Below, one piece after another: positions 250 through 29,464 of a DNA stretch of 38,624 nucleotides. Location of the stretch: the IMG/VR virus record IMGVR_UViG_3300027513_000007; one strand, 5' to 3'. Both the position numbers and the translations under genes were made by a program. This DNA comes from a virus. Positions within the stretch are counted from its first letter, which is position 1. Each line of letters begins with the position of its first letter. The notes beneath the pieces were generated by a model. The model ran no database searches. It was not told where the DNA came from and saw nothing but the letters and a program-made list of their open reading frames with translations.

Positions 250-2414
250 TGATAAAAGTGGGAAACGAGTATTTAGATTTCAATGAATTGGTTGAAACGG
301 AGAAGCAAGTGAAGCTATTGGAAGACCTGTCCACAAGTGACGGGGATTTCTCTTACTCCTTCGACCTCTCAAAGACGATAAATAATACCCGGATATTAAA
401 TAACCCACTACCGGATAATATTTCAAAAGAAGTATATCAGAAGATCCCCGCCAGCTTACTAACAGATTCAGGGGAGGAAACATTCAAAGGCTATCTGAGG
501 GTTGAGAAGATAAACGTAAATTATGAATGTTCTTTCTTTGCAGGGAATAACAACTGGTTCGGGCTTCTTTCCGGGAAATTAAGAGATATTGACTGGAGTG
601 ATTACGACATCGACCAGACGGAAATAACCCTATCCAACGCGCTGTTCAATACCTCCGGGGTGGTGTTTCCTTTAATTGATAATGGGTTATTGGCCTACCG
701 TGGGAATGCACTATTAAAAGTGGAGGACTTTGTAGGGGCACTTTACACCAAAGACATCGTAAACAGGGTATTCGCTTTACAAGGGATTAAAGTTCAGGGG
801 GAGCTATTAAACGACGCTGACTATTTAGCTTCTGTCGTTGTCAATAACCCCAAAAGTCAGGAGAATATCGACGCGGCTTCTTCTTATGTGGAGCAAAGCA
901 CGTTGATTGCCCGACCTGGGGAAAACGTTGAGTATCCGGTTGTATTTCAGAATGATTCAGTGTTTCCTTTTTTTGATGGCTCTTTGAATCCATTTAGTTT
1001 AGTCACCAATAGCTGGACGGCCCCCTTTAAAACGATGATTCATATTGAATTGTCGTTTGTGCCTTCAATTGTTGATGCCTCATACAGCCAGCGGATCTAC
1101 ATCTACATAAACGGGGTTTTTACTTTTGTCGATATCGGTCTTTCAGTAGGGGGGCTTTATAACTCAGCTACCGCAGGGGACCAGGAAAACTTTGTACTGG
1201 ACAGGACATTTTTAGTCGATCAGGGGGACGTTTTGACGTGGACCACTGAATGGCAGCAGTCCGTAGGATCAACACAGAATGACGTCGTTTCAGGATGGGT
1301 TAAAATAACCCCTGTATTTATTTATAAGGCATTTGGGGCTGCGATGGTCCCCGACTGGACGCAGGGAGAATTTATATCTGAGATAATAAAGCAGTTCAAC
1401 GCTATCCCCACTTATGACGCGGCCAATAAGACGTTAACACTGAATCTATTTGAGAAGATTCAAAGCCATGATCCTGTGGACCTTTCTGAATACATCTCGG
1501 CGGTAGAAGTTGATTATGCAGAGTTTGTTTCTGACTATGGCAAGAAGTCTTTTTTGTCACACATAGAAACCGAAGAAGAAGAAGAATTTAGACGGATGCC
1601 GCTGGATAAAAGGACTTACGACAAAGGGCAGATAGATATTGATAATGACTTTTTAGGGGATGAGGTGGATATAATTGAAAGTGAATTCTCCTCCCCGATA
1701 ACGTATATAAACCCTGTCTTCCAAATGAGCATAGAGAAGACCAACCTTGTAGAATTTGACCAGCAGTTTAACATGGAGTTTACAGCGGTTACCGATTCGG
1801 CGGGACGGGCAAGATTTGCTATCGCTGACGATAGATTTCAACTGTCGGACATGGTCAGGGTTACCGATTCAACTAATATCAGTTATAACGGTGACTATAT
1901 GGTGATTACGTTTGGGGCTGGGTATATAGAACTGGAGGGATTAGCATTTGACACGAACGCTACCGGAAGTCTGGCTAAAATGAACTTCGTTTATGGAGAT
2001 TCGGACCAGGTATATTTACTGCATCATGTTCCATTATACACCGTTTCTAAGTTCTCAGGGCTTACACAGATACAGGTTGAAAATACGGACTACTCCACAC
2101 TAGCTCCGGCATTTTATAATTTAATTCCTACGAATAGACAGATAGACAGGGACTTTCCGTTTTCGATGGCGTTTGCCGAAGGTGACCAGTTGTCGGTGAC
2201 TGAACGGTATTTCAGATTAGTTTCAATGGTATTAAACGACCCTGTAAAACTACTTTCTGTTGCGCATTTGCCCTATGCTATTTATCAGTCGCTGGACTTT
2301 TTAAGACCGATTACAATTAAGACGCAGGAGACACAGAACCAATACTATTTGAATAAGATATCAGGATATAAAGAGAGCTATTTGCCTTGTGAAATTCAAC
2401 TGATTAAACTCTAA
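246..2414 (+). CDS. Large virion structural protein (tail/baseplate-like), 722 aa
   Basis: Long ORF coupled by overlap on both sides and sitting immediately upstream of the tape-measure-like gene. No enzymatic motif recognised. Confidence 0.55.
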   Translation: MMIKVGNEYLDFNELVETEKQVKLLEDLSTSDGDFSYSFDLSKTINNTRILNNPLPDNISKEVYQKIPASLLTDSGEETFKGYLRVEKINVNYECSFFAGNNNWFGLLSGKLRDIDWSDYDIDQTEITLSNALFNTSGVVFPLIDNGLLAYRGNALLKVEDFVGALYTKDIVNRVFALQGIKVQGELLNDADYLASVVVNNPKSQENIDAASSYVEQSTLIARPGENVEYPVVFQNDSVFPFFDGSLNPFSLVTNSWTAPFKTMIHIELSFVPSIVDASYSQRIYIYINGVFTFVDIGLSVGGLYNSATAGDQENFVLDRTFLVDQGDVLTWTTEWQQSVGSTQNDVVSGWVKITPVFIYKAFGAAMVPDWTQGEFISEIIKQFNAIPTYDAANKTLTLNLFEKIQSHDPVDLSEYISAVEVDYAEFVSDYGKKSFLSHIETEEEEEFRRMPLDKRTYDKGQIDIDNDFLGDEVDIIESEFSSPITYINPVFQMSIEKTNLVEFDQQFNMEFTAVTDSAGRARFAIADDRFQLSDMVRVTDSTNISYNGDYMVITFGAGYIELEGLAFDTNATGSLAKMNFVYGDSDQVYLLHHVPLYTVSKFSGLTQIQVENTDYSTLAPAFYNLIPTNRQIDRDFPFSMAFAEGDQLSVTERYFRLVSMVLNDPVKLLSVAHLPYAIYQSLDFLRPITIKTQETQNQYYLNKISGYKESYLPCEIQLIKL

Positions 2415-4270
2415 TGGCAGACAGGGAAGAAACCATAATTCTAGATGTAGATGTCGACGTCGAAGACTCGGTAGAGTCAATAAACGACTTAACAGCGGCC
2501 AATAAAGAACTGCGGAAGGAACGGAACGCTTTGAATCTTCAGAGTGAGCAGGGAAAGAAACGGGCGCAGGAAATCAACGCTTTAATAGACCAGAACACAT
2601 CCAAGATAAAAGAGAATGTTTCCGCTATTGAGAAACAGAAGATAAACATCGGTAATTATAAAAGTGCATTAGACGGGGTTCATCCGGCTTTGGGGAAAGT
2701 GGGGGAAGGGTTGGAGTCGGGGGCTGCCGGGCTTAAAGCTATGACGCTTCAGGCGTTACGTTTCATCGCTACCCCAATAGGGGCCATACTTGCAGCACTG
2801 GTAGCCATATTCACCGTCTTAAAGGCTGCGATATCTTCCAACAATGAAGTATTAGACAAGTTTGAGAACATCACGAATGCTATCGGGGTAATACTTGATG
2901 TGGTCGTCGCCCGTGTTGGTAAACTCGGTGAAGCCTTAATAGCTTTAGTATCCGGGGACTTTGACAAAGCGGCGGATCTGACAGCGGCCGCATTCTCAGG
3001 GCTTGCCGAAGAAATAGCCAATGCAGTCACACAAGGGCAGTTGTATTTGGATTTATCACGTGAACTGGAAGACAGCCAACGGGCATTAAGAATTGAAACC
3101 GCACGAACAGAGAATGAGATTAAACGTCTGGTAGTTGCTTCCAAGAATAGAAATCTAAGCCTTGATGAACAGGAGGAAATGCTTCGAAAGGCACTAGCGT
3201 TAGAGGAAGAATTAGTAGACAAACGGGCAGAGAATGCGCAAAAGGATTTAGTACTCACAGCCAAACGGCTCGCATTAGAAAGGTCTTTAAGTCAAACGGC
3301 GGAAGAAACGTTTGATCAGTTTTTAGATCGGTTGGTGACTGGTGGTAAATTAGCTGATGAAGGAGTAGATGAAATAGTTGATAAAATTGAAGCCTTAGAA
3401 CAGGCGCGCGGATCTTCACTTGCTTTTCAGGAGAAGTTAGAAAACAACTTAGCCACCATCCAAGAGAAACGGACTAAGATACTTGAAGACCAAGCTAAAG
3501 CATTGGCCGAACAAGAAGCCCAATTAAGAGCAACACAACGTGCAGCCAACCAAATAGAGCCAACGACAGAAGATCCATTAGTAGGGGCTTTCCAGACACA
3601 GGCCACAATAATCACCGATATAAATGATCGGATGAACACCGACCTTGCTAAACGGAATGAAGCCTTCAGGGCAGAAGAAGCCAAAAGAGTAGAAGCCGGG
3701 GCACAAATGGCGGTATTAGTTGAACGGCAAAAGGTTGATGCAATCAGCAATTTAACCGGGGCACTTGCAGATGTATTGCATGAGGATACCGCAGGATATA
3801 AGATTCTAGCCTCCGCTGAGGCATTGATGAATACTTATTTAGCCGCTACTGCTGCCTATGCTTCAGGTGCTAAGATTAACCCCGTATTCGGTGCTATATC
3901 TGCGGCGGCTGCCGTAGTAGCTGGACTTGCCAACGTAGCTAGGATAAATTCAATAGAATTCGCTGAAGGAGGTTATACCGGGGACGGTGCAAAGATGCAG
4001 CCCGCCGGAATTGTTCACGCTGGCGAGGTGGTGTGGTCACAGAAAGACGTAGCTAAAGTAGGGGGGCCATTAGCAGCCAATGCCATGCGTCCGACTTTCA
4101 GAGGGTACCAGGATGGTGGGGTAGTTACCAGTTCTCTGACCGCACCCATAACGGCACAACTAGAGATGGCCAACATCATAAAAAATATGCCTTCTCCTGT
4201 GGTGGAGGTAGTTGAAATAAACAAAGTTCAGCGGGCGGTAGCAGTAAAACAAAAAATATCAAGACGATGA
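2414..4270 (+). CDS. Tape-measure-like protein, 618 aa
   Basis: Long Glu/Lys/Ala-rich coiled-coil regions and Ala/Gly-rich hydrophobic segments. The C-terminal motif GGYTGDG...AGIVHAGEVVWSQ is typical of tape measure or internal virion proteins. Confidence 0.65.
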   Translation: MADREETIILDVDVDVEDSVESINDLTAANKELRKERNALNLQSEQGKKRAQEINALIDQNTSKIKENVSAIEKQKINIGNYKSALDGVHPALGKVGEGLESGAAGLKAMTLQALRFIATPIGAILAALVAIFTVLKAAISSNNEVLDKFENITNAIGVILDVVVARVGKLGEALIALVSGDFDKAADLTAAAFSGLAEEIANAVTQGQLYLDLSRELEDSQRALRIETARTENEIKRLVVASKNRNLSLDEQEEMLRKALALEEELVDKRAENAQKDLVLTAKRLALERSLSQTAEETFDQFLDRLVTGGKLADEGVDEIVDKIEALEQARGSSLAFQEKLENNLATIQEKRTKILEDQAKALAEQEAQLRATQRAANQIEPTTEDPLVGAFQTQATIITDINDRMNTDLAKRNEAFRAEEAKRVEAGAQMAVLVERQKVDAISNLTGALADVLHEDTAGYKILASAEALMNTYLAATAAYASGAKINPVFGAISAAAAVVAGLANVARINSIEFAEGGYTGDGAKMQPAGIVHAGEVVWSQKDVAKVGGPLAANAMRPTFRGYQDGGVVTSSLTAPITAQLEMANIIKNMPSPVVEVVEINKVQRAVAVKQKISRR

Positions 4271-4546: not shown

Positions 4547-5653
4547 GTGACGGGCAATATTTATATCTACGGTGAGGTCGGCAAGCAAGTAACCTTAGAC
4601 TCGGTTCTAAAAAACATCGACCCCAAATATTCAGATTACATTGTCCACATCCACTCCCCAGGGGGTGAAGTATTCGAAGGATACGCGATCTATAACGCTA
4701 TCAAGAATACAGGAAAAAACATTACCGTCCATGTTGAAGGTACGTGCGCTTCGATAGCCACTTTAATAGCCGCAGCAGGGGACAAAATTATAATGAATCT
4801 CAAATCCTCATGGATGATTCATAGCCCGAGGGTACGCACCGAAGGGACATCAAAAGACTTACGCAACGCTGCCGGACAGCTCGATAGGATCGAGACGCAA
4901 TTAATTGATTCATGGGTAGGAAGAACATCTTTAACACGGGAGCAACTGGTTGAAATGTACGATAGGGAAACCCTATTAGGACCAGAGGAAGCGGTGCAGT
5001 TGGGATTTGCGGATGAAATACAGGAAGTTCTAAAAGCCGTAGCATCAGCAGACTTTAAAAAATATAACACAATGGAAAACACCAGTACCATTATGGCCGC
5101 TATAGATAGACTCACCAAAACGGTGACTAATCTATTCAAGCCTAAGAACATGACCGATACCCTTGCCGATGGACGCCAGATAATGGTAGAATCTGAAGAT
5201 GGGGATTGGACCGGAAAGCGGGTCACTCTTGTAGACGGAACCCCTTTAGAGAACGGTAATTATACTCTTGAAGGCGGACGGGTAATATCTGTCGCTGACG
5301 GGGCTATCGCAACAGTAACAGAACCAGAAGCAATACAAGCACCAAAACCGGAAGATATGGAACTTAAAGAAAAACTTGCGGCCGCAGAAGCTCGCATTAA
5401 AGAACTTGAAAGCGCCGTACAAGCGCAGACCGACACGGCCACAAAAGCCGAAGCAAAAGCTAAGTCTTTTGAAAACAAACTCCACACTGAGCTAAAATCA
5501 GTGCAGGATGAACTTAACAAGATTAAGAATACCACCGTAGGCGATGACTCCGCACCAGCCAAAGCAACGCAAGAAGCCAACCGCCCTGCGATTGTTGACC
5601 CTATGGCCGCATGGTACAAGAAAAATGTTCTCGACACCCGTAACACCGACTAA
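4547..5653 (+). CDS. ClpP-family (S14) prohead protease fused to a coiled-coil scaffold-like C-terminal domain, 368 aa
   Basis: Motifs IHSPGGEV, GTCASIATLIAAAGD (catalytic Ser) and WMIHSP (His). The C-terminal 100 aa are Ala/Glu/Lys coiled coil. GTG start. Confidence 0.85.
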   Translation: MTGNIYIYGEVGKQVTLDSVLKNIDPKYSDYIVHIHSPGGEVFEGYAIYNAIKNTGKNITVHVEGTCASIATLIAAAGDKIIMNLKSSWMIHSPRVRTEGTSKDLRNAAGQLDRIETQLIDSWVGRTSLTREQLVEMYDRETLLGPEEAVQLGFADEIQEVLKAVASADFKKYNTMENTSTIMAAIDRLTKTVTNLFKPKNMTDTLADGRQIMVESEDGDWTGKRVTLVDGTPLENGNYTLEGGRVISVADGAIATVTEPEAIQAPKPEDMELKEKLAAAEARIKELESAVQAQTDTATKAEAKAKSFENKLHTELKSVQDELNKIKNTTVGDDSAPAKATQEANRPAIVDPMAAWYKKNVLDTRNTD

Positions 5654-5654: not shown

Positions 5655-6701
5655 ATGACAATGCAATTCAAACCAGTAGCGTCAATGTACACACCGGAAT
5701 TGACCTACACTTATCCCGGTAAACTGAATACTGAGCTTATTAAGCCTATTCATATTGACATCCCGGCACTTACGGATCTATTCAGAATTATCCAGGGTGT
5801 ACGATGTGGTGAATATCTGCACTTGATACAACCCCTGACTTCTGTACTTACAAAGTCCACGGGTGATTGTAACCCTACCTACACACAGTCTGGATCTATC
5901 ACAGATCGTCCGTTGACCACTGGTAATTATGTGATTAACCTTGAATGGTGCGAGGAAGAATTTAACGCGGTATGTACGGCTCTCACTGAGAAGTATACCA
6001 GCATGGGTGTGGATGGCTACGAACTACAGGCCAACCTTCAGGCTATTATATTTGAACAGGTTATTGAGACTGCGAAACGCGATCTTCTGAAGTTGGTGTT
6101 TCTTTCTGACAACACCTACCCCGCTAGCTCTATTTGGAGCGCAATTGACGGTGTTTTCGTGAAGTTCTTCGACGCGGCTACTAACTATTGCGTGGAGCCT
6201 GTTTACAACTTCTCCGCTGCTCAGAAACTGCACAATTCTATTTTGAACGCTGACCAGGCAAGAGACATTTTGAAACTGTTGTTCACCAACGCCAATATTA
6301 GACTTAAATCACTCCCTGCTTCTCAGAAGTCATTCTGGGTATCACAGTCGATGTGGGAAAACTACTACACGTCAGTACTTGACAACTGCTGCAATGAAGG
6401 TAGCTGGCAAGCCGGCCAGGATGGTATCGGAACCCTGAAATACAGGGGTATCGAATTGCTTCCTTTGCCTATCATTGACGATGCGTTAGAGAATGATTCT
6501 ACCAACCCGTTCTATGATGAAATACGTCACTTTGCGGTGTACACTACAAGGGATAACCATTACCTGGGAGTGGAACGGAGTTCAGACCTTAACAACTTGA
6601 CTTCTTGCTTTGATTGCCGGACGAACTCTAACCTTATCAAAGGCAAAATGAGATTCGGATATAACTTTGCACAGTGTGATTTGATCGCTTGGGCTAAATA
6701 A
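5655..6701 (+). CDS. Major capsid protein (HK97-fold type inferred), 348 aa
   Basis: ATG sits 1 nt after the protease stop, in the position directly after the protease-scaffold gene. The size is right for a capsid protein. The track ORF start at 5544 is only an upstream open extension. Confidence 0.7.
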   Translation: MTMQFKPVASMYTPELTYTYPGKLNTELIKPIHIDIPALTDLFRIIQGVRCGEYLHLIQPLTSVLTKSTGDCNPTYTQSGSITDRPLTTGNYVINLEWCEEEFNAVCTALTEKYTSMGVDGYELQANLQAIIFEQVIETAKRDLLKLVFLSDNTYPASSIWSAIDGVFVKFFDAATNYCVEPVYNFSAAQKLHNSILNADQARDILKLLFTNANIRLKSLPASQKSFWVSQSMWENYYTSVLDNCCNEGSWQAGQDGIGTLKYRGIELLPLPIIDDALENDSTNPFYDEIRHFAVYTTRDNHYLGVERSSDLNNLTSCFDCRTNSNLIKGKMRFGYNFAQCDLIAWAK

Positions 6702-6707: not shown

Positions 6708-7262
6708 ATGCCAGTACTATGCGGAATAGGCAGCGGGATTGATTTCGACTGCCTTTCAAAACGAAAGATATCGGGTGTAAAAAAGGTATGGCTCTTTAAC
6801 ATGGACCAGCTTTCAAGCCCGATAGACCCCTCAGGAACGGGATACGTCACAGGACTGAACTTCACCGGATATGATGGACTGTACCTGTTCGATGCGGGTA
6901 AGTTCTCTCATTCGGCAGACAGCCCGATAAACGTACAAGCGGATTCCGGAGCGGTATCTTTTCTTCAGAATGTGATTCTCAGACTGGTGGTAGATACGCC
7001 TACTGAACTTTCGACGCTGGCGGACTTGCTGGTTTCGACTGTGGGGGCCATTGTGCTCACAAACAATAACGAGTTCCGGATATACGGAGCGCAAAACGGA
7101 CTAACGGCCAGCGAAGGCAACGTATCTCCTACGGGCCGGGCTCAGGGAGAAGACACAGCCACTACGGTGACATTGATAGGTGAAGAAGGGCTTCCTTATA
7201 GAATGTTGCTTAACACTGACTATGCGACTACGTTGGCTTTGGTACAGGCTTACGAATTCTAA
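6708..7262 (+). CDS. Structural protein, probable major tail (tube) protein, 184 aa
   Basis: Follows the capsid gene and is followed by a strong intrinsic terminator, an arrangement expected for highly expressed genes. The beta-rich sequence resembles tail tube proteins of Bacteroidota siphophages by eye. Confidence 0.4.
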   Translation: MPVLCGIGSGIDFDCLSKRKISGVKKVWLFNMDQLSSPIDPSGTGYVTGLNFTGYDGLYLFDAGKFSHSADSPINVQADSGAVSFLQNVILRLVVDTPTELSTLADLLVSTVGAIVLTNNNEFRIYGAQNGLTASEGNVSPTGRAQGEDTATTVTLIGEEGLPYRMLLNTDYATTLALVQAYEF

Positions 7263-7286
7263 CCTAAACCGAACCTTTAAATAAAG

Positions 7287-7312
7287 AAGCCTCTTCACCG
7301 GGGCTTTTTTGT
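7287..7312 (+). terminator. Rho-independent terminator
   Basis: The sequence aagcctc/ttcacc/ggggctt forms a 7-bp stem (one G-U pair) with a 6-nt loop, followed by TTTTTTGTTG. Confidence 0.7.
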
Positions 7313-7341
7313 TGCTTAATTTAAATTAAAACTTAAATTTG
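7308..7341 (+). promoter_or_regulatory. Candidate Bacteroidota-type promoter (TTTG ... TAAATTTG)
   Basis: Exact TAnnTTTG match (TAAATTTG, 7334-7341) lies 22 nt after a TTTG at 7308-7311. It ends 3 nt before ATG 7345, implying a near-leaderless mRNA. Confidence 0.35.
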
Positions 7342-7344
7342 GCT

Positions 7345-7518
7345 ATGACACGACAAGAAATTAAGGCTGCCTTAAAGACCAGAGGCATCTTTGATACTAA
7401 TTCGAAAGACCAACTCTGGCAGCAAGCCTTCCAATTATACTATCAGGAAACAAAACAGAAGTTATCTATTAGCTGTGGCTCTTGTTTCAACCGTGTCCGT
7501 AATTGGCTACAGGCATGA
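7345..7518 (+). CDS. Small hypothetical protein, 57 aa (below the ORF-track cutoff)
   Basis: ATG directly after the promoter-like box. Its stop overlaps the next ATG as ATGA. Contains a CGSC motif. Confidence 0.5.
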   Translation: MTRQEIKAALKTRGIFDTNSKDQLWQQAFQLYYQETKQKLSISCGSCFNRVRNWLQA

Positions 7519-7712
7519 ATACATTAGAGACACTTACCGAAGATTTAGACAAAGAAAAGGATTATTGCATTATAGCTATTAGGTTCTTAGAAGGTTGCCC
7601 CGGATTAGAGCCTGATAAATATCCAGAACAAAGAATTGAACAATATTTTGATAGACTTAATGTGTTGGCTATTGAAAGGGCTCGTCGGTTGAAAAATATC
7701 TTTGGTTTATGA
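7515..7712 (+). CDS. Hypothetical protein, 65 aa
   Basis: ATG at 7515 gives ATGA coupling with the upstream ORF. The track's TTG start at 7503 is less likely. ATGA overlap with the next gene. Confidence 0.55.
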   Translation: MNTLETLTEDLDKEKDYCIIAIRFLEGCPGLEPDKYPEQRIEQYFDRLNVLAIERARRLKNIFGL

Positions 7713-8344
7713 TGCACCAGATTTATTACAAGCCTGAACAGAAGACTAAGCTATATCCATTTGCAACACCTTACTATAACGAAGGGCTTACTATCTTCTT
7801 CGAGAATAAACCCATTGAAGCCATTGTAAACAGTGCAGACGGCCCAACTATAGCGGTAGCAAGCTGGAAATTATCACAGAAATTAAGAAGACATCAGCCT
7901 TTAACTAATGAACGGTTAGAATCTGACTACCAGGTGCTGAGTTTTACCCGGAATTCGTGGCGACACAACATGATGGCGATGTCAAACCAGTGGCATCCTG
8001 GATTTATGAAGACAATTACGCTCTTGTGGGAGAAATTAGGGCTAAAAATGCCCGGAGAAGCGAAACAACCTATCTACCAGAACCATTATTCCGCGAAAAG
8101 TGACATTTACAAGCGGTATGTTAACGAATTCCTGTCGCCGGCGATGGAATTAATTGAAAAAGACGAAGAATTGCACAGTTTAATGGTTGTACCGTCACGT
8201 TATGGGTCATTGTCACGGGAAGCGGACCTGAAAAGTGTAAAAGAGAAGCTAGGCATGACGGATTACCCGTTATGCCCTTTCATTTTAGAACGTTGTCCTT
8301 CATTGTGGTTCACTATTCACCGGATCCCCGTCACCTACCTATGA
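7709..8344 (+). CDS. Hypothetical protein, first large gene of the glyco-island, 211 aa
   Basis: Translationally coupled to the neighbouring glycosyltransferase. No motif recognised. Confidence 0.6.
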   Translation: MMHQIYYKPEQKTKLYPFATPYYNEGLTIFFENKPIEAIVNSADGPTIAVASWKLSQKLRRHQPLTNERLESDYQVLSFTRNSWRHNMMAMSNQWHPGFMKTITLLWEKLGLKMPGEAKQPIYQNHYSAKSDIYKRYVNEFLSPAMELIEKDEELHSLMVVPSRYGSLSREADLKSVKEKLGMTDYPLCPFILERCPSLWFTIHRIPVTYL

Positions 8345-8976
8345 TTTCATTAATACATCCAAGCAGGGGAAGACCAGAACAGGCACTAAAGGCTACTCGT
8401 GATTGGTCGTTTGCTGCTGGTTCATCGGACTTTGAACACATTTTAAGCCTTGATGATGGTGATACGGAATACTATAAGTATATAATGTATTTCGCGCCAA
8501 GTGAGATTGTAAAAGGTCCTAACAATTCAGTAGTTGAGGCAACAAATAGAGCTGCTATGGTTGCTGATGGTGACATTCTAATTTATATGTCAGACGATTT
8601 TAAGTGCCCTGAAAACTGGATTGAATTAGTCACTAAGGAATTTGCAAAGTATTCAGGCCCAACACTTATAAAGGTTGACGACTGTCTACAAAAGTTTCAC
8701 GTTCCTGTGCTGACTATCCCAATAATGAACCGTGAGCTTTATAATAAACTCGGATACTTCTTTCATCCTGACTATAAGTCTATGTTCTGTGATGAACATC
8801 TATATTGGAAGACTATGCAGTTAGGGGCCTTGAAGTTTGCACCACATTTGAAATTCGAACACTGCCACGTATCAGTAGGCAAAGCCCCGGACGATGAAAC
8901 CTATCGGAGAAGCGCAGCAAATTGGGAACAAGGAAAGGCGATGTTTGCCAAACATAAACGGGCGGGATTTCCATGA
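8341..8976 (+). CDS. Glycosyltransferase (GT-A-like), 211 aa
   Basis: N-terminal LIHPSRGRPEQA, GDILIYMSDDF (DxD-like) and VDD..IPIM.R pattern typical of small phage/LPS GT-A enzymes. ATGA-coupled start at 8341. Confidence 0.65.
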   Translation: MISLIHPSRGRPEQALKATRDWSFAAGSSDFEHILSLDDGDTEYYKYIMYFAPSEIVKGPNNSVVEATNRAAMVADGDILIYMSDDFKCPENWIELVTKEFAKYSGPTLIKVDDCLQKFHVPVLTIPIMNRELYNKLGYFFHPDYKSMFCDEHLYWKTMQLGALKFAPHLKFEHCHVSVGKAPDDETYRRSAANWEQGKAMFAKHKRAGFP

Positions 8977-9554
8977 GTTCACTGGCGATATTGATATGTA
9001 CTTTACCGGAACGGTTCGAAAAGTTGAAGCGGTTGAAGAACATTTTAGAACCCCAGGTGGAACGGTTCAAAGACAGGGTTTCTATTCACTACCATGACGG
9101 AGGGAGTTCGCTACCAACAGGCACAAAACGGAATTTACTAATAGAAAACAGTTCCTCCGATTACTTCTGCTTTGCCGATGACGATGACTTAGTTTCCGCT
9201 TTCTATGTTTCTGAAATAGTTAAAGCAATGGACCAGAACCCGGACGTGATTACTTTCTGTGGGTACATTACAACGAACGGGGCCAACCGGGTAAACTGGG
9301 AGATTAAACTAGGCAATGAATATGTTGAACGGAACGGGATGTACTATCGATGGCCCAACCATTTAGCGGTGATGAAACGGGAGCGGGTCAGACACGTAAA
9401 GTTTCCGGCTGTATGGCAGATGGAGGACTTTCGATGGTCGGAAGAAATAGCACGGAGGAAACTACTAAAAACGGAGGTTCACATTCCGTTGGAATTGTAC
9501 CACTATGACTGTATTCCAAAAACAAAAAGAGTAAATGAAAGAAGACTTCGATAA
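8973..9554 (+). CDS. Glycosyltransferase family 2-like, 193 aa
   Basis: LAILICTLPER N-terminus and TGTKRNLLIENSSSDYFCFADDDD (GT-A DxD). Confidence 0.75.
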   Translation: MSSLAILICTLPERFEKLKRLKNILEPQVERFKDRVSIHYHDGGSSLPTGTKRNLLIENSSSDYFCFADDDDLVSAFYVSEIVKAMDQNPDVITFCGYITTNGANRVNWEIKLGNEYVERNGMYYRWPNHLAVMKRERVRHVKFPAVWQMEDFRWSEEIARRKLLKTEVHIPLELYHYDCIPKTKRVNERRLR

Positions 9555-10149
9555 ATCATTTTTTCAGACCGCATGGGGGGAGGAAGGGTACTTAGAACCC
9601 TTCAGCTACGGAGTCGGTATTGATACCGTGTGTGAGGTTGGGTTAATGCCGTTCCTGTCACCACATAAGGACGCTTTGGAAATTGGTCCAGGGGGAGGGA
9701 CGTTCACACAACGGATGATAGGCCAATTCAATCACTTGACGGTGATGGATGTCATTAGAAAGCCTAAAGCATTTGATGCCTATGAGAACTTCACCTATAT
9801 CGAATTATCAGATAAGAACTTTGACTGTCCTGTCGATGCCTATTCAATGGACTTTTGTTTCAGCTATAATGTCTTCTGCCACTTATCAAATGAGGCTTTA
9901 AGTAAGTATTTGAGGGGCATAAACAAAGCATTGAAGTTCGGTGGGGACTTTGTGTTTATGCTTTCAAACTACCGGCATACCAGTCAGTTCGGTAAAGGGT
10001 ATTCACTCGGAGACTTCTTACCAATGGGTCATTTTTATCAGGATCTACGGACACTGGATTTGATTGTTGATTATAATGAATGGGAGGTAATTAATAACAA
10101 TCTACTCCCAGACCACAGGGATATAGTATGTCACCTACGAAAGATATGA
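9535..10149 (+). CDS. Class I SAM-dependent methyltransferase, 204 aa
   Basis: Motif I is ALEIGPGGGTFT. The acidic post-I residue is in LTVMDV. MDFCFSYNVFCHL resembles motif IV. Confidence 0.7.
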   Translation: MKEDFDKSFFQTAWGEEGYLEPFSYGVGIDTVCEVGLMPFLSPHKDALEIGPGGGTFTQRMIGQFNHLTVMDVIRKPKAFDAYENFTYIELSDKNFDCPVDAYSMDFCFSYNVFCHLSNEALSKYLRGINKALKFGGDFVFMLSNYRHTSQFGKGYSLGDFLPMGHFYQDLRTLDLIVDYNEWEVINNNLLPDHRDIVCHLRKI

Positions 10150-10784
10150 TAGCTTCTATCCTCATCCCGACAATGCCTGGAAGATTGGAAAAGTTTACCA
10201 ATCTGTTCAACGAACTACATCGGCAATTGGCCTATATGCAAACTTTTCACCCAACACTGGGACAGATTGAAATAGTAATAGACGATTCAAAACGGTTTTT
10301 AGATGGGGGACTTTCTATAGGAAAGAAACGGGAGGCATTAGTACAGCGTGCAGAAGGTAAATATTGTTGGTTTCTGGATGACGATGAAACGATAGCGCCG
10401 AACTACCTTGAAACATTGGTAAGACTTTGTTGCAGGAATGAAGATGTATGCACATTCCGGGCCATAGGAAAATTTGATAACTATTGGGCGGTCTATGATA
10501 TGTCGTTATTTAACACATGGAATGAACCCTCCACACCTGATAAAACAGTAGTTCGCCAGCCGTGGCATCAGTGTCCGGTTAAGACTGAGTATGCTAAATT
10601 ATATTCATTTCCTGATACGTCCTATGGAGAGGACTGGGAATGGATGGAGCAAGTCTTAAAGCATTGCAAGTCAGAAGCCCACACGGACGCTATTTTACTT
10701 CAATACAATCACGGAAAACATTCAGAAGCAGATAAAATAACTAACCATGTACAGTCAGAATCAGGAGGAGAAACACATTCTTGA
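10146..10784 (+). CDS. Glycosyltransferase family 2-like, 212 aa
   Basis: ILIPTMPGR N-terminus and SIGKKREALVQRAEGKYCWFLDDDE (DxD). Paralogous in pattern to 8973. ATGA-coupled start at 10146. Confidence 0.75.
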   Translation: MIASILIPTMPGRLEKFTNLFNELHRQLAYMQTFHPTLGQIEIVIDDSKRFLDGGLSIGKKREALVQRAEGKYCWFLDDDETIAPNYLETLVRLCCRNEDVCTFRAIGKFDNYWAVYDMSLFNTWNEPSTPDKTVVRQPWHQCPVKTEYAKLYSFPDTSYGEDWEWMEQVLKHCKSEAHTDAILLQYNHGKHSEADKITNHVQSESGGETHS

Positions 10785-11352
10785 ATACTTCGGATATCAT
10801 GTAGGTACCTTCATCGATGTAGGTTGCAATGATTGCGAAACGTTCTCCAATACCAGGGCTTTGGCGCTCAGGGGATGGAAAGGGATACTATTGGATTGCA
10901 GTCCAACGGCTATTGATCGCTGTAAGAAACTATACAACGGACACAAGGGCATTTATATTTACGACTATGCGATTTCATCTCACAATGGCAAAGCGATTCT
11001 ACAGGAATCCGGGCCGTTATGTACTCCTTCCGATATTGGGTTGGTTAGTACTTTCCATCAACACGAGAAGGCCAGATTTGATAGGAAGGTTAAATATGAA
11101 CCTATTGAAGTTAAAACGTTCAAATGGAAGACCGCATTGAATAGGTGGAAGATAAAAGAGTTTGACTGCATTTCTTTAGACGTTGAAGGGGATGAGCTTA
11201 ACATTCTACCAGATATGGACCTATCCAAAACTAGATTAATCTGTATTGAGTGGAACGGGAAACCTGAACTAAAGGAAGCCTATGAGAAATATTTATCAGG
11301 TTTCAGTATAATTTATACGTCAGCCGAAAACATCGTTTATGCCAGAATTTGA
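10747..11352 (+). CDS. FkbM-family methyltransferase, 201 aa
   Basis: N-terminal SQNQEEKHILEYF (the SQxGED-type start of FkbM proteins), FIDVGCNDCETFSNT, and GWKGILLDCSP. Confidence 0.7.
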   Translation: MYSQNQEEKHILEYFGYHVGTFIDVGCNDCETFSNTRALALRGWKGILLDCSPTAIDRCKKLYNGHKGIYIYDYAISSHNGKAILQESGPLCTPSDIGLVSTFHQHEKARFDRKVKYEPIEVKTFKWKTALNRWKIKEFDCISLDVEGDELNILPDMDLSKTRLICIEWNGKPELKEAYEKYLSGFSIIYTSAENIVYARI

Positions 11353-11917
11353 CATTAGTCTTTATGACGAGGACTTCTTCGAATGGCACGTAACACATGC
11401 TAGAAAGTATTCTATACGCACGATGGACTGGTACATTATTAATTACCATCCTAAAAGCGTTATAGACTTTGGATGTGGGATAGGTAGCTATTTAGAATGC
11501 GCTTACGACTATGATATTAAGATTAAAGGCTATGAGATTTCGTGGGAAGCAGTCAGCCACACCCCAGAACGCATACGGCCATACATTGAATACAGGGACT
11601 GCACCGAGCCAATAAACGCGGGGATATTCGATACGGTTATTTCTTTTGAAACCGCGGAACACATTGAACCGGAAGGGACTAACCAATTCATTTTGAACCT
11701 TGTAAACGCTACCGGTAAAACGTTACTATTCACAGCAGCCCCTTTAGGGCAGGGGGGAACAGGGCACATCAACTGCCGGCCTAAAGAGTTCTGGATAATG
11801 GAGTTAAGTGACCTCCTGATTTACAATGACGTTTTAACCGGGGAGATATCAGAGGCATGGGAGAAACTTGGAGCCCCGTGGTATATCGTTAAAAATCTAA
11901 TGGTGTTCAGCCGATGA
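11339..11917 (+). CDS. Class I SAM-dependent methyltransferase, 192 aa
   Basis: Motif I is VIDFGCGIGSYLE. DTVISFETAEHIEPEG is typical of the Methyltransf_11/23 type. Confidence 0.7.
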   Translation: MPEFDISLYDEDFFEWHVTHARKYSIRTMDWYIINYHPKSVIDFGCGIGSYLECAYDYDIKIKGYEISWEAVSHTPERIRPYIEYRDCTEPINAGIFDTVISFETAEHIEPEGTNQFILNLVNATGKTLLFTAAPLGQGGTGHINCRPKEFWIMELSDLLIYNDVLTGEISEAWEKLGAPWYIVKNLMVFSR

Positions 11918-12543
11918 TAATTGTCAACTTCTCCACAAAAGGCTACGGGATGTTGCAACGCAGACTGCGTCATTCGTTAGCGGGTCACAGAAGTATAATG
12001 TTCAGCAACTATGGGCAGATTGATAGCCCAACACAACAGGAAAGCCCCTATCAGTTTAAGATACATTCCATAGAAAGGGCATTTCTTCAGGATGATATCG
12101 TTTTATGGTGTGATTCATCACTGTTTCTGGTTGGAAACCTACATATCATCGACAATCTTATAAAACAGGATGGCTATTTTATGGAGGAGGCGGGGCATTG
12201 GGTAGGGTCATGGACAAATGAGTTTACAAAGGATTATTTTAAGATGACAGAGGAAGAACTCGCGGTCCCTGGGGGGATATTCATGTTTACCGCTGGGTGC
12301 TTGGGATTGAACAGACAGAATCAGACAGCTATGGAATGGTTCAGACAGTGGAAGGAGGCGGCGCTTGCGGGATGCTTTAAAGGTCATTGGCACGATCACC
12401 GACACGACATGACCTGTGGTTCGATAATAGCCCAACGGCTGGGAATGAAGTACCAACGGGGAGGTAAGTACCTTGCTTATGTGGGGCCAGACTACCCCAA
12501 ACCGGAGCCGGGTGTTGTATTTAAGTTAAAAGGATACTTATGA
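11914..12543 (+). CDS. Possible nucleotide-sugar transferase-like protein, 209 aa
   Basis: The Y-x-F-K...DDIVLWCDSS pattern resembles GT-A nucleotide-diphospho-sugar transferases. ATGA-coupled at both ends. Weak call. Confidence 0.35.
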   Translation: MIIVNFSTKGYGMLQRRLRHSLAGHRSIMFSNYGQIDSPTQQESPYQFKIHSIERAFLQDDIVLWCDSSLFLVGNLHIIDNLIKQDGYFMEEAGHWVGSWTNEFTKDYFKMTEEELAVPGGIFMFTAGCLGLNRQNQTAMEWFRQWKEAALAGCFKGHWHDHRHDMTCGSIIAQRLGMKYQRGGKYLAYVGPDYPKPEPGVVFKLKGYL

Positions 12544-12734
12544 GAATTCTACTGGCGTGGTGGTTCTGGTTTACCAACAGAAACGATGAAGTCGCCAGAC
12601 AGCGACTAAAAATATGTTCTACGTGTGAAAAAATGAAATGGGGGATATGCAAAGTTTGTGGCTGTCCATTGCAAACTAAAGCGAGATTGTTAGATGAAAT
12701 ATGTCCGCATCCGGATGGAAACAAGTGGAATTAA
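12540..12734 (+). CDS. Small Cys-rich zinc-ribbon-like protein with hydrophobic N-terminus, 64 aa
   Basis: CSTC..x10..CKVCGC..x15..C pattern. Last gene before the terminator. Confidence 0.5.
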   Translation: MRILLAWWFWFTNRNDEVARQRLKICSTCEKMKWGICKVCGCPLQTKARLLDEICPHPDGNKWN

Positions 12735-12770
12735 AAGGGGGCCAATCGCCAACAAGCCCCCTTTAATATT
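12734..12770 (+). terminator. Rho-independent terminator
   Basis: aaagggggc (12734-12742) pairs with gcccccttt (12756-12764), giving a 9-bp GC-rich stem followed by a T-rich aatatttt tail. Confidence 0.6.
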
Positions 12771-12831
12771 TTCGCCGGACTTATTGGTTTTACCGACGCG
12801 AAGTAAATATAACAATTTAAATGCCATTTAA

Positions 12832-13584
12832 GTGAAGTTATGCGCTATTTACAACGTATGGGCCGATTGGGATATTTTAGAATATTCGCTTAAAAACATA
12901 GAGCCGCTTGTCGACGGAGTCATTATAGTCGGCTCCACTAAGAGCAACTTTGGGGAATATTATCCAATACCTGAGAATTTCCGCGACAGGGTAGCCATAC
13001 GTGAACCACAGTTTAAAACAGCCCGCGAAAGTGAGACAGACAAGCGTAATTTCGGATTAGACTTAGCACGGTGGGCAGGGTTCACCCACTTCCTAACTAT
13101 CGACGCTGACGAATTCTACGACCCTGAAAAATTCATCTTAGCTAAAAAATTAGTTGACGACACTGGACTTATTGGGCTGGTTTGTACCTGTACCACTTAC
13201 TTTAAAAGCCCTACTTTAACGATTGGATTGGATGTGACGCTGGTTCCCTTCATACACGAACTTACCCCGACTATTAAACACACCTTCAACAGAAACTATC
13301 CCTATGCGTGGAACGGGACTCAGATTCGGATAGACCCTACCCGGAGTTTGAATATTGATGATGGGGTATTTATGGTTGATATTACCATGCATCACATGTC
13401 ATGGGTACGAGCAGACATCAAACGTAAAATCAGGAACTCCACGGCAAAAGCGAATTTAGATCGATCTACCATATTGGAAGATTTGGCCAATGCAAAGCCG
13501 GGTTACTACTGTCGTTTTTACCAAAAGACACTGATAGAATGTGAAAACCGGTTTAATATTAAGTTAGACGAAAGCCAATCCTAA
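12832..13584 (+). CDS. Probable glycosyltransferase (GT-A-like), 250 aa
   Basis: AIYNVWADWDILEYSLKNI N-terminus and LTIDADEFY (DxD). GTG start; no in-frame ATG is available. Confidence 0.45.
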   Translation: MKLCAIYNVWADWDILEYSLKNIEPLVDGVIIVGSTKSNFGEYYPIPENFRDRVAIREPQFKTARESETDKRNFGLDLARWAGFTHFLTIDADEFYDPEKFILAKKLVDDTGLIGLVCTCTTYFKSPTLTIGLDVTLVPFIHELTPTIKHTFNRNYPYAWNGTQIRIDPTRSLNIDDGVFMVDITMHHMSWVRADIKRKIRNSTAKANLDRSTILEDLANAKPGYYCRFYQKTLIECENRFNIKLDESQS

Positions 13585-14022
13585 TTTACCTCTATGTATT
13601 TTATGATGATCATACTTTAATCCTCTGGCCTTCATTGCTTCGGCACCGTTATCATAATAGATACCAGTTAAAAGGTCGAGACATAGTTTTGACCTACACG
13701 TGTATTTCATCAGTTTTCGGTATGCATGTATCCTATTCTCGGAAGTAGTGGCCCATTCCAAATTTTCGACTCGGTTATCAGTTTTAATGCCGTTTTTGTG
13801 GTTTATTTCCGGCTTATTTTCTGGATTGGCTATAAATGTGAGTCCGATGAGCCTATGAACTGATGGCCATTTTCTAATATCATTAACTGATAAACACACA
13901 GATTGATATCCACACTTATCAATTGATAATTTAAGTTTTTTGATGGTAGTGCCTCTGTGGCTGTAGATATTACCCTGATCATCAGCAGAGTAAAGACCCT
14001 CATAACTTGGAATTGGCTTCAT
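13564..14022 (-). CDS. HNH homing endonuclease (NUMOD4 + HNH_3 type), 152 aa
   Basis: The N-terminal motif is PIPSYEGLYSADDQGNIYS (NUMOD4-like). The HNH core is HRLIGLTFIANPENKPEINHKNGIKTDNRVENLEW. It is the only antisense gene in the late block. Confidence 0.85.
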   Translation of the reverse strand: MKPIPSYEGLYSADDQGNIYSHRGTTIKKLKLSIDKCGYQSVCLSVNDIRKWPSVHRLIGLTFIANPENKPEINHKNGIKTDNRVENLEWATTSENRIHAYRKLMKYTCRSKLCLDLLTGIYYDNGAEAMKARGLKYDHHKIHRGKLGLAFV

Positions 14023-14104
14023 ATTTTAAAGATAGATTTTATTGCAAAATTAACAGCAATCTAGCTATAGAGATTATACACATCTTTGTTACGTTCCCAC
14101 ACGC

Positions 14105-15736
14105 GTGGCAGAACTGAAATATCCCGGAGGTATGGACGTAAAGAAAATCACTGAGCCTTTATACAAGATTTATAACTTCGTAGTAAGGGAATTTGCCTAC
14201 ACTCAACAGGTAGAAATGTCCGGTCAATATCTCCCCTTCGGGCCGGATGATATGTTCCCCAATAAATTAGCTGCCTTAGTTCAAGGTTCACCCACCGCGA
14301 CCGCGTGTTTATCTACAATGGTAGACTTTGTGACGGGGGAGGGATTTAACAAAGGCATAGGACTTGAAAATCTTGTTATTAACAATCAAGGCTTAAAGTT
14401 ATTTCGATATCACTCCATACAATCGGATTCATTGGTCCATAACTGGGGTGTTGCTTCCATAGTGAAGTACAACCAGGCGGGGGAGATTACCCAGATATTT
14501 GATATTCCTTTTGCTTACTGCCGACTAGGGAAACCTGATGACAGAGGTATAATTTCTAAGATACTTTACAATCCCTATTTCGGGACGGGGCTTTACAACA
14601 GAGCGCAGACGGTAGAATATGACGTCTACAATCCAACCGCGGCCACCGTTCAGATGGGACTGGATAAGAAATGGAAAGGACAGATAAATTGGCTTGGCAT
14701 TAAAGACCAGAAACATCCGTTTTACCCTATACCTGACTATTATTCTGCTTCCCACTGGATGAATGTAGAGAAGAACGCGGCCGTTTACTTCGATACAAAC
14801 TTAGAGAACGGGTTCCTTCAGTCTATGGTCCTTAAAATGGTGGGCGACCCTAACGACGTTTCCGGCAAGAAGGATGGCAACGATGAGGATATTACCAAAG
14901 GGAAGTTACTGGATGAAATGTTAACCCACGACTTTTCAGGTCCAAAGCGGGCGCATAAGATAATGACCCTGTGGGGAAACAACAAAGAAGAATGGCCCGA
15001 GCTTGCAGCTTTCCCTACAAATGCGAATTCAGATTTATATCGCGTCCAGGATGAACAGGCCACCCGGAAGATAAGCATAGCTACCAAAGTCCCCGCTATT
15101 CTAGCCAATGTAAACGACGCTAATAACTTCGGGGGGGAGCAGATTCGCCCAGCGGTGAAATTAATGCAGCAACGCGCCAAACGGCCACAGGATTTGTTGA
15201 TAGACTATTACTCGGATATGTTGAAACGGTTCATTAATCCTGTCACCGTTCCGATAAAAATAGTCCCTTATAACCCGTTCCCAGAATTAGAGAGCATAGA
15301 TCCGCAAGTGTGGGGCGTAATGACGCTGGAAGAACAACGGAAATGGACACAAGACCACACAGAAATAGAATTAACGCTTACTACCCCTCAAACACCGGCT
15401 GCACCTGTCGAAAACAGGTTTGTGAACCTACATTTTGACTCTTATCCGGCGGGAGCGAAGGCAAATGCTAAACGGGCGGTAGAATGGGAGGAAAAAATGC
15501 AAACTTTCTGTCAACCGAAGAAGGGAAGGATGTTGACAGACCAGATTTTGAACGGAATTCCACTGGGACCGAAGGAAATCAAGCGTTTATCACGGTATTT
15601 AAGTAAAAATACTATACACAAAGACAAACCTTATGGCGAAAGCTGCGAGGCGGTGATGTATGACGCGTGGGGAGGGTCTGAAATGATGGTTTGGGCTAAC
15701 GAAAAAGTAAAAGAGTTAAATGGCAAAGCTGATTAA
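14105..15736 (+). CDS. Portal protein (probable), 543 aa
   Basis: The size, its position before connector-like genes, and an overall resemblance to Bacteroidota-phage portal proteins by eye. GTG start. The C-terminal ~110 aa look like an appended module (ANAKRAVEWEE...WGGSEMMVWA). Confidence 0.55.
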   Translation: MAELKYPGGMDVKKITEPLYKIYNFVVREFAYTQQVEMSGQYLPFGPDDMFPNKLAALVQGSPTATACLSTMVDFVTGEGFNKGIGLENLVINNQGLKLFRYHSIQSDSLVHNWGVASIVKYNQAGEITQIFDIPFAYCRLGKPDDRGIISKILYNPYFGTGLYNRAQTVEYDVYNPTAATVQMGLDKKWKGQINWLGIKDQKHPFYPIPDYYSASHWMNVEKNAAVYFDTNLENGFLQSMVLKMVGDPNDVSGKKDGNDEDITKGKLLDEMLTHDFSGPKRAHKIMTLWGNNKEEWPELAAFPTNANSDLYRVQDEQATRKISIATKVPAILANVNDANNFGGEQIRPAVKLMQQRAKRPQDLLIDYYSDMLKRFINPVTVPIKIVPYNPFPELESIDPQVWGVMTLEEQRKWTQDHTEIELTLTTPQTPAAPVENRFVNLHFDSYPAGAKANAKRAVEWEEKMQTFCQPKKGRMLTDQILNGIPLGPKEIKRLSRYLSKNTIHKDKPYGESCEAVMYDAWGGSEMMVWANEKVKELNGKAD

Positions 15737-29278: not shown

Positions 29279-29464
29279 TTAAAAGGCATATTCTAAACAT
29301 TTATTGTGCTGGTACCTACCCATAGCCACAGAAACGCACTGTTTGCATTTGCCGCGCCTGAAACTGTAGACCCGTAATACCCCGGCTTTTGTCACATAGC
29401 GCCTTAAAACGCCTGGAAATGCTTCCTCCGGCTTTTGTTTATGGCAGTGCGTACATTCTTTCAT
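29279..29464 (-). CDS. Small zinc-ribbon protein, 61 aa
   Basis: CTHC ... CKQC pairs. ATGA-coupled to the upstream methyltransferase. Confidence 0.55.
   Translation of the reverse strand: MKECTHCHKQKPEEAFPGVLRRYVTKAGVLRVYSFRRGKCKQCVSVAMGRYQHNKCLEYAF

Follow-up and report, generated by a model that had tools for sequence, protein, structure and literature searches.

Analysis of the IMG/VR virus record IMGVR_UViG_3300027513_000007, a stretch of 38,624 nucleotides called the window below, reveals a block of same-strand, overlap-coupled genes at 7345-13584 that encodes six predicted glycosyltransferases (GTs) and three predicted methyltransferases (MTs), plus two small Cys-containing proteins (o7339 and a DUF6171 protein). 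We read this island as a cytoplasmic pathway of stepwise glycosylation and O-methylation, which would build a short O-methylated oligosaccharide, most likely on the phage's own virion protein or proteins, and we give this reading a probability of roughly 55%. The original prediction, made from the letters of the window, had named virion-protein glycosylation as one of two candidates, the other being modification of a host glycan, and it is now the better supported of the two in view of the homology to GTs of actinobacteriophages, the placement in the head module and the recurrence of the module elsewhere.

The island takes up 6.25 kb of the 38,497 bp of unique sequence, i.e. 16%, close to the roughly 15 percent of a 38.5-kb genome estimated before. 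Every junction of open reading frames (ORFs) between 7345 and 12734 overlaps, by 4-38 nt, so that the overlap coupling proposed for the operon stands, while the number of ORFs between the two hairpins is 11 and not 10; o12832 then follows. The genes and signals are listed below, with methyltransferases dependent on S-adenosylmethionine abbreviated as SAM MTs.

7280-7313, + strand: intrinsic terminator 1, after the capsid and o6708 genes (-16.9 kcal/mol, z = -4.75)
7334-7341, + strand: TAAATTTG, a match to TAnnTTTG, 3 nt ahead of the first island ATG
7345-7518, + strand: o7339, a 57-aa protein with invariant W, F, C-G-x-C and W, in all relatives
7515-7712, + strand: 65-aa ORF, within a 190-bp insertion specific to the window (7519-7708)
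7709-8344, + strand: o7709, GT-A-like, resembling WbbM, without a classical DxD
8341-8976, + strand: o8341, GT2 with SDD motif (PF00535, 25.8 bits; phrog_14945, E 6e-21)
8973-9554, + strand: o8973, GT2 with DDDD motif, FADDDD (PF00535, 29.6 bits; phrog_14775, E 2e-29; phrog_8858)
9535-10149, + strand: o9535, class I SAM MT with GPGGG (Methyltransf_11, 31.3 bits against a threshold of 21.2)
10128-10784, + strand: o10128, GT2 with DDDE motif, FLDDDE (PF00535, 33.2 bits)
10747-11352, + strand: FkbM-family MT (Methyltransf_21, PF05050, 39.1 bits against 22.7)
11339-11917, + strand: o11339, class I SAM MT with GCGIG (Methyltransf_23, 29.9 bits against 27)
11914-12543, + strand: o11914, GT8-like GT-A with LWxDxS and HRHD motifs
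12540-12734, + strand: Cys-rich, zinc-ribbon-like DUF6171 protein (PF19668, 28.6 bits; phrog_13558)
12734-12764, + strand: weak hairpin, possible terminator 2 (9-bp stem, 13-nt loop, poor T-run, z = -1.77)
12832-13584, + strand: o12832, GT-A of 250 aa with invariant D91-x-D93 (model and Foldseek)

The link to known virion glycosylation is carried by two of the GT2 enzymes. In a tblastn search of 50,697 phage records, o8973 matches only 63 actinobacteriophage records, with some 30% identity across more than 90% of the protein, and these include Che8 gp108, Omega gp16 and many GTs of Gordonia phages; a megablast of the whole island against the same records gives no match. By blastp, o8973 aligns with the N-terminal GT domain of Che8 gp108 and Omega gp16 at E-values of 5e-24 and 8e-21, and o10128, a paralogue of o8973 with 28% identity, aligns with Che8 gp108 at 3e-15. 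Judged from these alignments, both are full-length homologues of the Che8 gp108/Omega gp16 GT domain. In addition, o8341 weakly matches Che8 gp109. For Che8 and Corndog, the phages' own GTs are reported to glycosylate the capsid and the tail tube of the virion (Freeman 2023, as related in PMC11256854, PMC11600133, PMC12363180 and PMC10877033), and the homology of o8973 and o10128 to the GTs of such phages therefore supports our reading. So does the fact that these mycobacteriophages likewise pair GT2 with sugar O-methyltransferases: Che8 gp108 is a fusion of GT2 with a TylF/Methyltransf_24 domain, Corndog gp35 is a TylF protein, and Omega gp17 belongs to Methyltransf_24. The glycans of mycobacteriophages reportedly sit at C-termini, and there is said to be little evidence of virion glycosylation elsewhere; to our knowledge, glycosylation of phage particles has been demonstrated only for actinobacteriophages. 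The original prediction knew of no such system in Bacteroidota phages, and our literature search, incomplete in its coverage, likewise found no description outside actinobacteriophages.

The placement of the island is also shared with two of these phages. In Corndog the order is portal, MT, three GTs, two more genes and capsid, and in Omega it is capsid, GT, MT and, later, another GT before the connector. For the clade of the window, we collected more than 20 IMG/VR contigs by capsid-anchored searches and one relative from NCBI metagenomes. In every sufficiently long relative, down to 37% portal identity, the island stands between the capsid and o6708 genes and the portal gene with the same gene order; the gene neighbourhood, whose conservation was raised together with the original prediction, is thus kept. 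Nine relatives cover both o12832 and the portal gene, and in all of them o12832 is followed directly by the portal gene or by an HNH insertion ahead of that gene. The core of the island consists of o7339, o7709, o8341, o8973, the FkbM gene, o11914 and o12832, while o9535, o11339, o12540 (the DUF6171 gene) and sometimes o10128 are variable. An FkbM homologue is present in every relative whose locus covers that part of the island; a homologue of o11339 is found only in L008, L016 and L021, and the DUF6171 gene in L008, L016, L017, L026 and L027. The slot of o9535 holds an unrelated TylF-type O-methyltransferase in five relatives (L014, L017, L021, L025 and L026). The G+C content of the island is 42.4%, compared with 42.7% for the rest of the genome. 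A recent horizontal acquisition of the whole island was considered and rejected, since it has the same G+C content as the genome and occurs in the whole clade. On this sequence evidence, the island is an old, vertically inherited hallmark of the whole clade that is internally mosaic. A head-module placement that matches Corndog and Omega and is conserved in the clade, with a G+C content equal to that of the genome, argues for a role connected with the virion.

The mosaic nature is clearest in the comparison with the near-identical relative L008. The capsid and portal proteins of the two are 99.6% and 99% identical in amino acids, while o8341 is only 57% identical, the FkbM protein 79% and o11339 73%; the other island genes, which flank the divergent ones, are 92-99% identical, and the neighbours of o8341 94-98%. 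Among the island genes o8341 is the most mosaic, with allele classes that are independent of capsid relatedness. Such uneven identities are the pattern expected of an exposed surface structure under diversifying selection, and the mosaic island is in this respect consistent with a glycan carried on the virion. The insertion with the 65-aa ORF is missing in L004, L005 and L008, in which o7339 and o7709 directly adjoin. As separate observations, a second, divergent o11914-like (GT8-like) paralogue of 238 aa occupies the variable slot in L024 (L024:6165-6881), showing that the number of GTs varies within the clade, and the 42-kb relative L020 has, between its FkbM and o11914 genes, an IS1595-like transposase (L020:15679-16611; a zinc ribbon plus a DDE-type ORF, 310 aa, recognized by eye) with three small ORFs inserted alongside.

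A related module is found outside the clade. By a GTDB scan with the o11914 family, we identified two unrelated elements, L028 and L030. The first is a 38.9-kb contig in a Bacteroidetes metagenome-assembled genome (MAG), with the order TerS, TerL, a 178-aa ORF, an o8341-like GT, an o8973-like GT and an o11914-like GT, followed by a 189-aa ORF, FkbM, another GT and a large tape-measure-like protein. The second, in a Planctomycetaceae MAG, has an intein-containing protein, a T4-type portal, a 252-aa ORF and a 752-aa fusion of o8341-like and o8973-like GTs, followed by an o11914-like GT, an MptE/Maf-like protein, a Methyltransf_23 gene and a TylF gene; no FkbM homologue is found in L030. This recurrence of the GT2, GT2 and GT8-like module beside terminase or portal genes adds to the support for virion glycosylation. 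The surroundings of more distant o11914-like genes are ordinary cellular ones, among them a polysaccharide cluster of Phycisphaera, so the enzyme family is a general one and it is the module that provides the link to head genes. A broader view, which we hold only tentatively and at somewhat less than even odds, is that a portable head-module cassette of GT2, GT2 and GT8-like enzymes with FkbM or TylF MTs has spread over unrelated tailed phages of several phyla and gives them strain-variable, methylated capsid coats. This cassette would occur in Bacteroidota, in Planctomycetota and, in reduced form, in Actinomycetota, and virion glycosylation might then be a general, diversifying 'glyco-serotype'. 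Equally tentatively, the clade of the window could carry this cassette in its most elaborate form known, initiated by an enzyme that is not related to the GT25 proteins of Che8 and Corndog. As an observation on the side, the product of L030:1-3150, of more than 1,049 aa and upstream of the T4-type portal, contains an intein splicing domain and a LAGLIDADG endonuclease, and from its domains and position it is probably an intein-interrupted terminase.

The assignments of the enzymes themselves are mostly in accordance with the original prediction, and all the motifs it quoted are present in the island translations. The three GT-A enzymes it called at 8341, 8973 and 10128 score above the gathering cut-off of PF00535 (23.3 bits), and the three SAM MTs at 9535, 10747 and 11339 are all above their Pfam thresholds; PHROGs agree in both cases. 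The Cys-rich zinc-ribbon ORF is matched by DUF6171 in Pfam. In o8341, which carries YMSDDF, the residues S84-D85-D86 are invariant in the alignment. The genes at 11914 and 12832, described as weakly GT-like, are supported as GT-A-type by models and Foldseek or by fusions, so the earlier fold calls were even understated, and o7709, one of its unknowns, is read as GT-A-type as well from Foldseek of the model.

The three GTs without Pfam matches need more detail. For o7709, neither Pfam nor PHROG gives a match, no meaningful profile match is found among PDB sequences, and no invariant DxD is seen. Its AlphaFold2 (AF2) model has a pLDDT (predicted local distance difference test) of 92, and the best Foldseek match is WbbM (6u4b; E 6e-4, probability 0.99, TMq 0.46), the sole match with E < 1e-3, followed by ArnC and GtrB. 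The matched region of WbbM is one we take to be the DUF4422/GT111 domain. The model thus suggests a GT-A-like fold for o7709, with membership of GT111/DUF4422 not established. For o11914, there is no Pfam match for the protein itself, no meaningful profile match in the PDB and no tblastn match in isolated phages. Its family has 998 representatives at 50% identity, with natural fusions to FkbM, TylF, Methyltransf_24/rhamnosyl-O-methyltransferase and GT2 domains, and in one fused homologue (P0367) GT8 (PF01501) covers the o11914 domain below threshold, with 20.1 against 24.3 bits. The residues D67-x-S69 and H162-R-H164 are conserved in the alignments. From these fusions and motifs we read o11914 as a GT8-like enzyme working with sugar O-methyltransferases; an hhalign comparison of its profile with that of o12832 was negative.

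For o12832, Pfam gives no match and the profile search among PDB sequences no meaningful one. Metagenomes contain 1010 homologues of o12832 at E <= 0.001. Among the best 120 listed, identity is about 60-93%, and several of these lie on contigs of about 40 kb. The AF2 model (pLDDT 93.7) has SunS and ThuS as top PDB matches by Foldseek, at E 3e-9 and with TM-scores of about 0.5, followed by WrtF, TarS and SpsA. There are 174 PDB matches with E <= 1e-3, and among the 50 listed 49 are glycosyltransferases, the exception being the nucleotidyltransferase 2cu2. In BFVD the top matches are Fringe-like and GT17-like phage proteins, with a TMq of 0.72. Against Omega gp23, o12832 gives a DADE alignment that is weak (E 0.03, probability 1.7%), and the comparison with Corndog gp36 was negative.

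Regarding the small ORFs, neither o7339 nor the 65-aa ORF at 7515-7712 has a Pfam match. At roughly the spot of the DUF6171 gene in the window, between o11914 and o12832, three relatives encode a 97-aa protein with several hydrophobic segments and CxxCM (L013:8246-8539, L014:7635-7928 and L025:18109-18402), which might be a membrane-anchored counterpart of DUF6171 or an unrelated, holin-like gene.

The signals around the island suggest how it may be expressed. The original prediction had two intrinsic terminators bracketing the operon. The upstream one holds up well: a hairpin with T-run stands behind the o6708 homologue in 11/11 relatives although the stem sequences are unrelated, which is good evidence that it functions. 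The downstream one is weak; its hairpin recurs solely in L008, while L016 and L020 have other hairpins there and five other relatives have no hairpin at that position. Just past terminator 1, TAAATTTG matches TAnnTTTG, the consensus of the -7 promoter element in Bacteroidota. A perfect match is found at this place in L008, L020, L021, L024 and L027 and a match with one mismatch in other relatives; genome-wide the motif shows no enrichment, occurring 33 times where 36 are expected. The box is therefore only suggestive as an island promoter, and it is its position after the terminator that we use.

The pathway would then work as follows. Terminator 1 would limit read-through from the abundantly expressed capsid genes, and the Bacteroidota-type -7 box would restart transcription, so that the enzymes would be produced late and at catalytic levels. 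Among the ORFs of 100 aa or more, many of which have no match, PHROG and Pfam scans detect no integrase, DNA polymerase, NDP-sugar (nucleoside diphosphate sugar) synthesis, Wzx/Wzy or hydroxymethylase gene; this bears out the original prediction, which saw no Wzx/Wzy, nucleotide-sugar synthesis or hydroxymethylation genes. Because the phage lacks nucleotide-sugar genes, the island enzymes would use NDP-sugars and SAM of the host. One GT would start the chain by linking a sugar to an amino-acid side chain in a structural protein, and our guess is o12832, because its closest solved folds are peptide glycosyltransferases. The remaining GTs would lengthen the chain and the MTs would O-methylate or cap the sugars, while the swapping of cassettes (Methyltransf_11 versus TylF in one slot, divergent alleles of o8341) would alter the glycan from strain to strain. 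Candidate acceptors are the capsid protein, o6708 or another virion protein.

Several points weigh against this reading, and some of them account for our keeping it near 55%: the C-terminus of the capsid protein, strongly conserved in the alignment of relatives, has no Ser/Thr-rich stretch or other obvious glycosylation tail; no island protein resembles the GT25 enzymes Che8 gp110 and Corndog gp38, with no Pfam match to GT25 in any of them and negative hhalign comparisons of the o7709, o11914 and o12832 profiles with Che8 gp110; and an identity of 30% among GT2 domains leaves the acceptor specificity unfixed. Besides, soluble GT-A enzymes also make lipid-linked polysaccharides, and the distant relatives of o11914 in cellular polysaccharide clusters point the same way. 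The GT genes of Che8 lie at the genome end, outside the head module, which means that the linkage to head genes is not universal. Finally, the capsid and o6708 proteins are identified from position alone, and searches of isolated-phage records with the island, the capsid protein and o6708 give no cultured member of the clade.

The strongest alternative, although an unlikely one, is that the enzymes remodel an envelope glycan of the host during infection (lipopolysaccharide, O-antigen or capsule), acting on undecaprenyl-linked or exported sugars, which could block superinfection or keep progeny from sticking to debris. GT2, GT8-like, GT111-like and FkbM/TylF enzymes are typical of O-antigen and capsule loci, the best solved-structure match of o7709 is an O-antigen enzyme, and o11914-like genes are known from cellular polysaccharide clusters, as said above. 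Peripheral GTs acting on lipid carriers need no transmembrane (TM) segment either. The island proteins indeed have none (no 19-residue window exceeds 1.4 on the Kyte-Doolittle scale), so that the enzymes are soluble as proposed originally, but the step from there to a soluble acceptor does not hold, since lack of a TM segment alone does not exclude lipid-linked acceptors. Against remodelling of the host, the scans found no flippase, polymerase, GtrA/GtrB-type or other membrane component and no export function, and nine enzymes far exceed the known serotype-conversion modules of phages. The absence of an integrase from the PHROG-scanned ORFs suggests a lytic phage, which would gain little from such remodelling; the genes are fixed in the head module, universal in a seemingly lytic clade, and unrelated elements carry the module next to their own terminase or portal genes.

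A further alternative, which we consider improbable, is that a free or peptide-linked glycoconjugate is made outside the virion, for example o7339 glycosylated by a SunS-like GT, or a methylated oligosaccharide that disturbs host defence or signalling. The closest solved folds of o12832 are indeed glycocin S-glycosyltransferases, and in all relatives the first ORF of the operon is small, conserved and contains Cys. However, o12832 consists of a GT-A domain only, with 250 aa compared with 333-421 residues in the matched SunS/ThuS chains, its TM-scores to SunS are only about 0.5 and better structural matches are generic phage GT-A proteins, while o7339 has just two Cys and lies at the opposite end of the island; no leader peptide, transporter or thiol-disulfide genes were found in the scans of the window. 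Glycosylation or methylation of the phage DNA, a hypermodification evading restriction, is highly improbable: phage GTs acting on DNA are well known and the genome has two DNA methyltransferases (27799-28863 and 29461-30099), but no dNMP hydroxymethylase, thymidylate-synthase-like, DNA polymerase or other hypermodification gene was detected among the scanned ORFs, the FkbM, TylF and Methyltransf_11 enzymes and the GT-MT fusions point to sugar O-methylation, six GTs are excessive for the decoration of DNA, and the island lies in the head module, away from the replication genes.

Returning to the genome that carries the proposed virion-glycosylation island, its unique length is 38,497 bp with a G+C content of 42.7%. 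Bases 1-127 repeat exactly as bases 38498-38624, in the same direction, so the genome is closed (circular or terminally redundant); as 127 is a frequent k-mer size of assemblers, this repeat probably reflects an overlap left by assembly rather than a genuine direct terminal repeat. The other genes that matter here are:

2414-4270, + strand: 618-aa protein with tape-measure-like C-terminus, upstream of the protease
4547-5653, + strand: head maturation protease, upstream flank (phrog_94, E 3e-55)
5655-6701, + strand: putative major capsid protein, after the protease (phrog_38780, function unknown, E 1e-8)
6708-7262, + strand: o6708, conserved 184-aa protein (phrog_19091, function unknown)
13564-14022, - strand: HNH homing endonuclease, not a pathway member (phrog_59, E 2e-37)
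14105-15736, + strand: portal protein, downstream flank (phrog_11226, E 8e-45)
27799-28863 and 29461-30099, - strand: two DNA methyltransferases in the leftward-transcribed early region (phrog_67 and related families)
32778-33971: large terminase

The start of the capsid gene, at about 5655, is judged from the relatives, which begin with MKENQ or MTKSN. The capsid protein gives no PDB match by profile search and no isolated-phage match by tblastn, and o6708, whose identity across all relatives is 41-99%, has no Pfam, PDB or isolated-phage match by the same kinds of search. We regard o6708 as a candidate virion protein and candidate acceptor; the original prediction placed the island between capsid/tail-tube genes and the portal, and this position is conserved in the relatives, while the tail-tube label for the 6708 protein finds no support. 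The gene order of tape-measure-like protein, protease, capsid, island and portal is unusual. The 2414-4270 protein, which is encoded upstream of the protease, and the L028:10765-13725 protein, a large one encoded downstream of the GT module, both match with their last C-terminal 120-150 residues or so the ends of tape-measure PHROGs, and from this they may be candidates for a tape measure or an ejection protein. The HNH gene sits in a 556-bp insertion (13484-14039) between the last GT and the portal and overlaps the 3' end of o12832 by 21 nt; the site is empty in L008. HNH genes are found elsewhere within the island in L011, L013, L014, L015 and L020, and as they occupy differing positions the island is a hotspot for homing endonucleases. 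A gene for a GIY-YIG endonuclease lies elsewhere in the genome.

The host is likely a member of Bacteroidota, because the matches of the terminase, the portal and o12832 agree with the TAnnTTTG box. Among isolated phages, the closest matches of the terminase are phages of Bacteroides and Phocaeicola (35%), and those of the portal are phages of Bacteroides, Cellulophaga and Tenacibaculum (20-25%). For o12832, homologues with 29-30% identity are present in all 15 records of Prevotella Lak megaphages (e.g. MK250025.1:334901-335455), the only matches among deposited phage genomes. Scanning GTDB with the capsid alignment turned up neither a prophage nor a host genome. Separately, an 872-aa protein at 17991-20609 has a right-handed beta-helix region (PF13229) and is probably, from this region, a tailspike or depolymerase; the receptor on the host would then be a polysaccharide.

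The enzyme families are ordinary, and phage-encoded glycosylation of virions is already known for actinobacteriophages. What is new is the size and composition of the cassette and its fixed location among the head genes of a clade that is abundant and uncultured and lies outside Actinomycetota (about 1,000 homologues of o12832 at E <= 0.001), as well as the mosaic diversification, the recurrence of GT2, GT2 and GT8-like genes beside packaging or head genes in unrelated phages, and the lack of an initiator of the Che8/Corndog type. Sugar coating of virions may thus be more widespread than reported. If our reading is true, capsid glycan coats would be a feature of phages across phyla, and they could affect particle stability, binding to mucus or decoys, immune recognition in animal hosts and evasion of host defence; the variable GT and MT slots would be a natural source of tools, both soluble glycosyltransferases directed at proteins and sugar methyltransferases, and the missing GT25 homologue predicts a new initiating enzyme.

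Finally, we compare the island with known systems. SunS and ThuS, the S/O-glycosyltransferases of glycocins, are the best solved-structure match of o12832 and, as GT2-type GT-A enzymes, act on a polypeptide in the cytoplasm; their matched chains of 333-421 residues differ from the 250 aa of o12832, the TM-scores are about 0.5, and SunS and ThuS presumably have a further domain at the C-terminus for binding the substrate, which would be missing from o12832. Partners expected of a glycocin (precursor or leader peptide, transporter, thiol-disulfide and immunity genes) were not found in the scans of the window. The Gtr modules of serotype conversion (GtrA/GtrB/GtrV), carried by temperate phages, combine a flippase in the membrane, a bactoprenol-linked GT that has TM helices and a serotype-specific GT that is an integral membrane protein. 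Of these features, neither TM segments in the island nor an integrase was detected, and, for DNA glycosylation of the T-even type, no hydroxymethylase was found among the scanned ORFs, beside which unannotated small ORFs remain. With bacterial O-antigen and capsule loci, the island shares enzyme families (WbbM-type GT111, FkbM MTs) and the cassette-like, mosaic variation among close strains; unlike them, it lies in a head module and has no initiating phosphoglycosyl transferase, flippase, polymerase, ABC transporter or NDP-sugar gene. In the chlorovirus PBCV-1, cytosolic GTs encoded by the virus, together with A064R (GT-GT-methyltransferase), reportedly build a methylated glycan on the major capsid protein. 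PBCV-1 is a eukaryotic giant virus with N-linked glycans, and the likeness is one by description: both use soluble GTs and a sugar O-methyltransferase in the cytoplasm, independent of the host's glycosylation machinery, and GT-MT fusions are also natural in the o11914 family.

The closest comparison is with the mycobacteriophage cassettes, Che8 gp108-110, Corndog gp35-38 and probably Omega gp16/17/23. They differ from the island in host phylum (here probably the Gram-negative Bacteroidota), in their unrelated structural genes and in having three or four enzymes compared with six GTs and three MTs. GT25 enzymes, to which Che8 gp110 and Corndog gp38 belong and which are called essential for capsid glycosylation in PMC12363180, have no homologue here, while the window has WbbM-like, GT8-like and SunS-like GTs with FkbM and Methyltransf_11/23 MTs. 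Also, glycosylation is reported on the virions of mycobacteriophages and is predicted from the genes for the phage of the window, where nothing in the C-terminus of the capsid protein suggests an acceptor tail. On the other hand, the two share soluble GT2 enzymes with sugar O-methyltransferases, the homology of o8973 and o10128 to Che8 gp108 and Omega gp16 and, weakly, of o8341 to Che8 gp109, and, in Corndog and Omega, GT and MT genes within the head module. In addition, MTs of the TylF type, as in Che8 and Corndog, are found in the relatives of this phage, in the same slot that o9535 occupies in the window.

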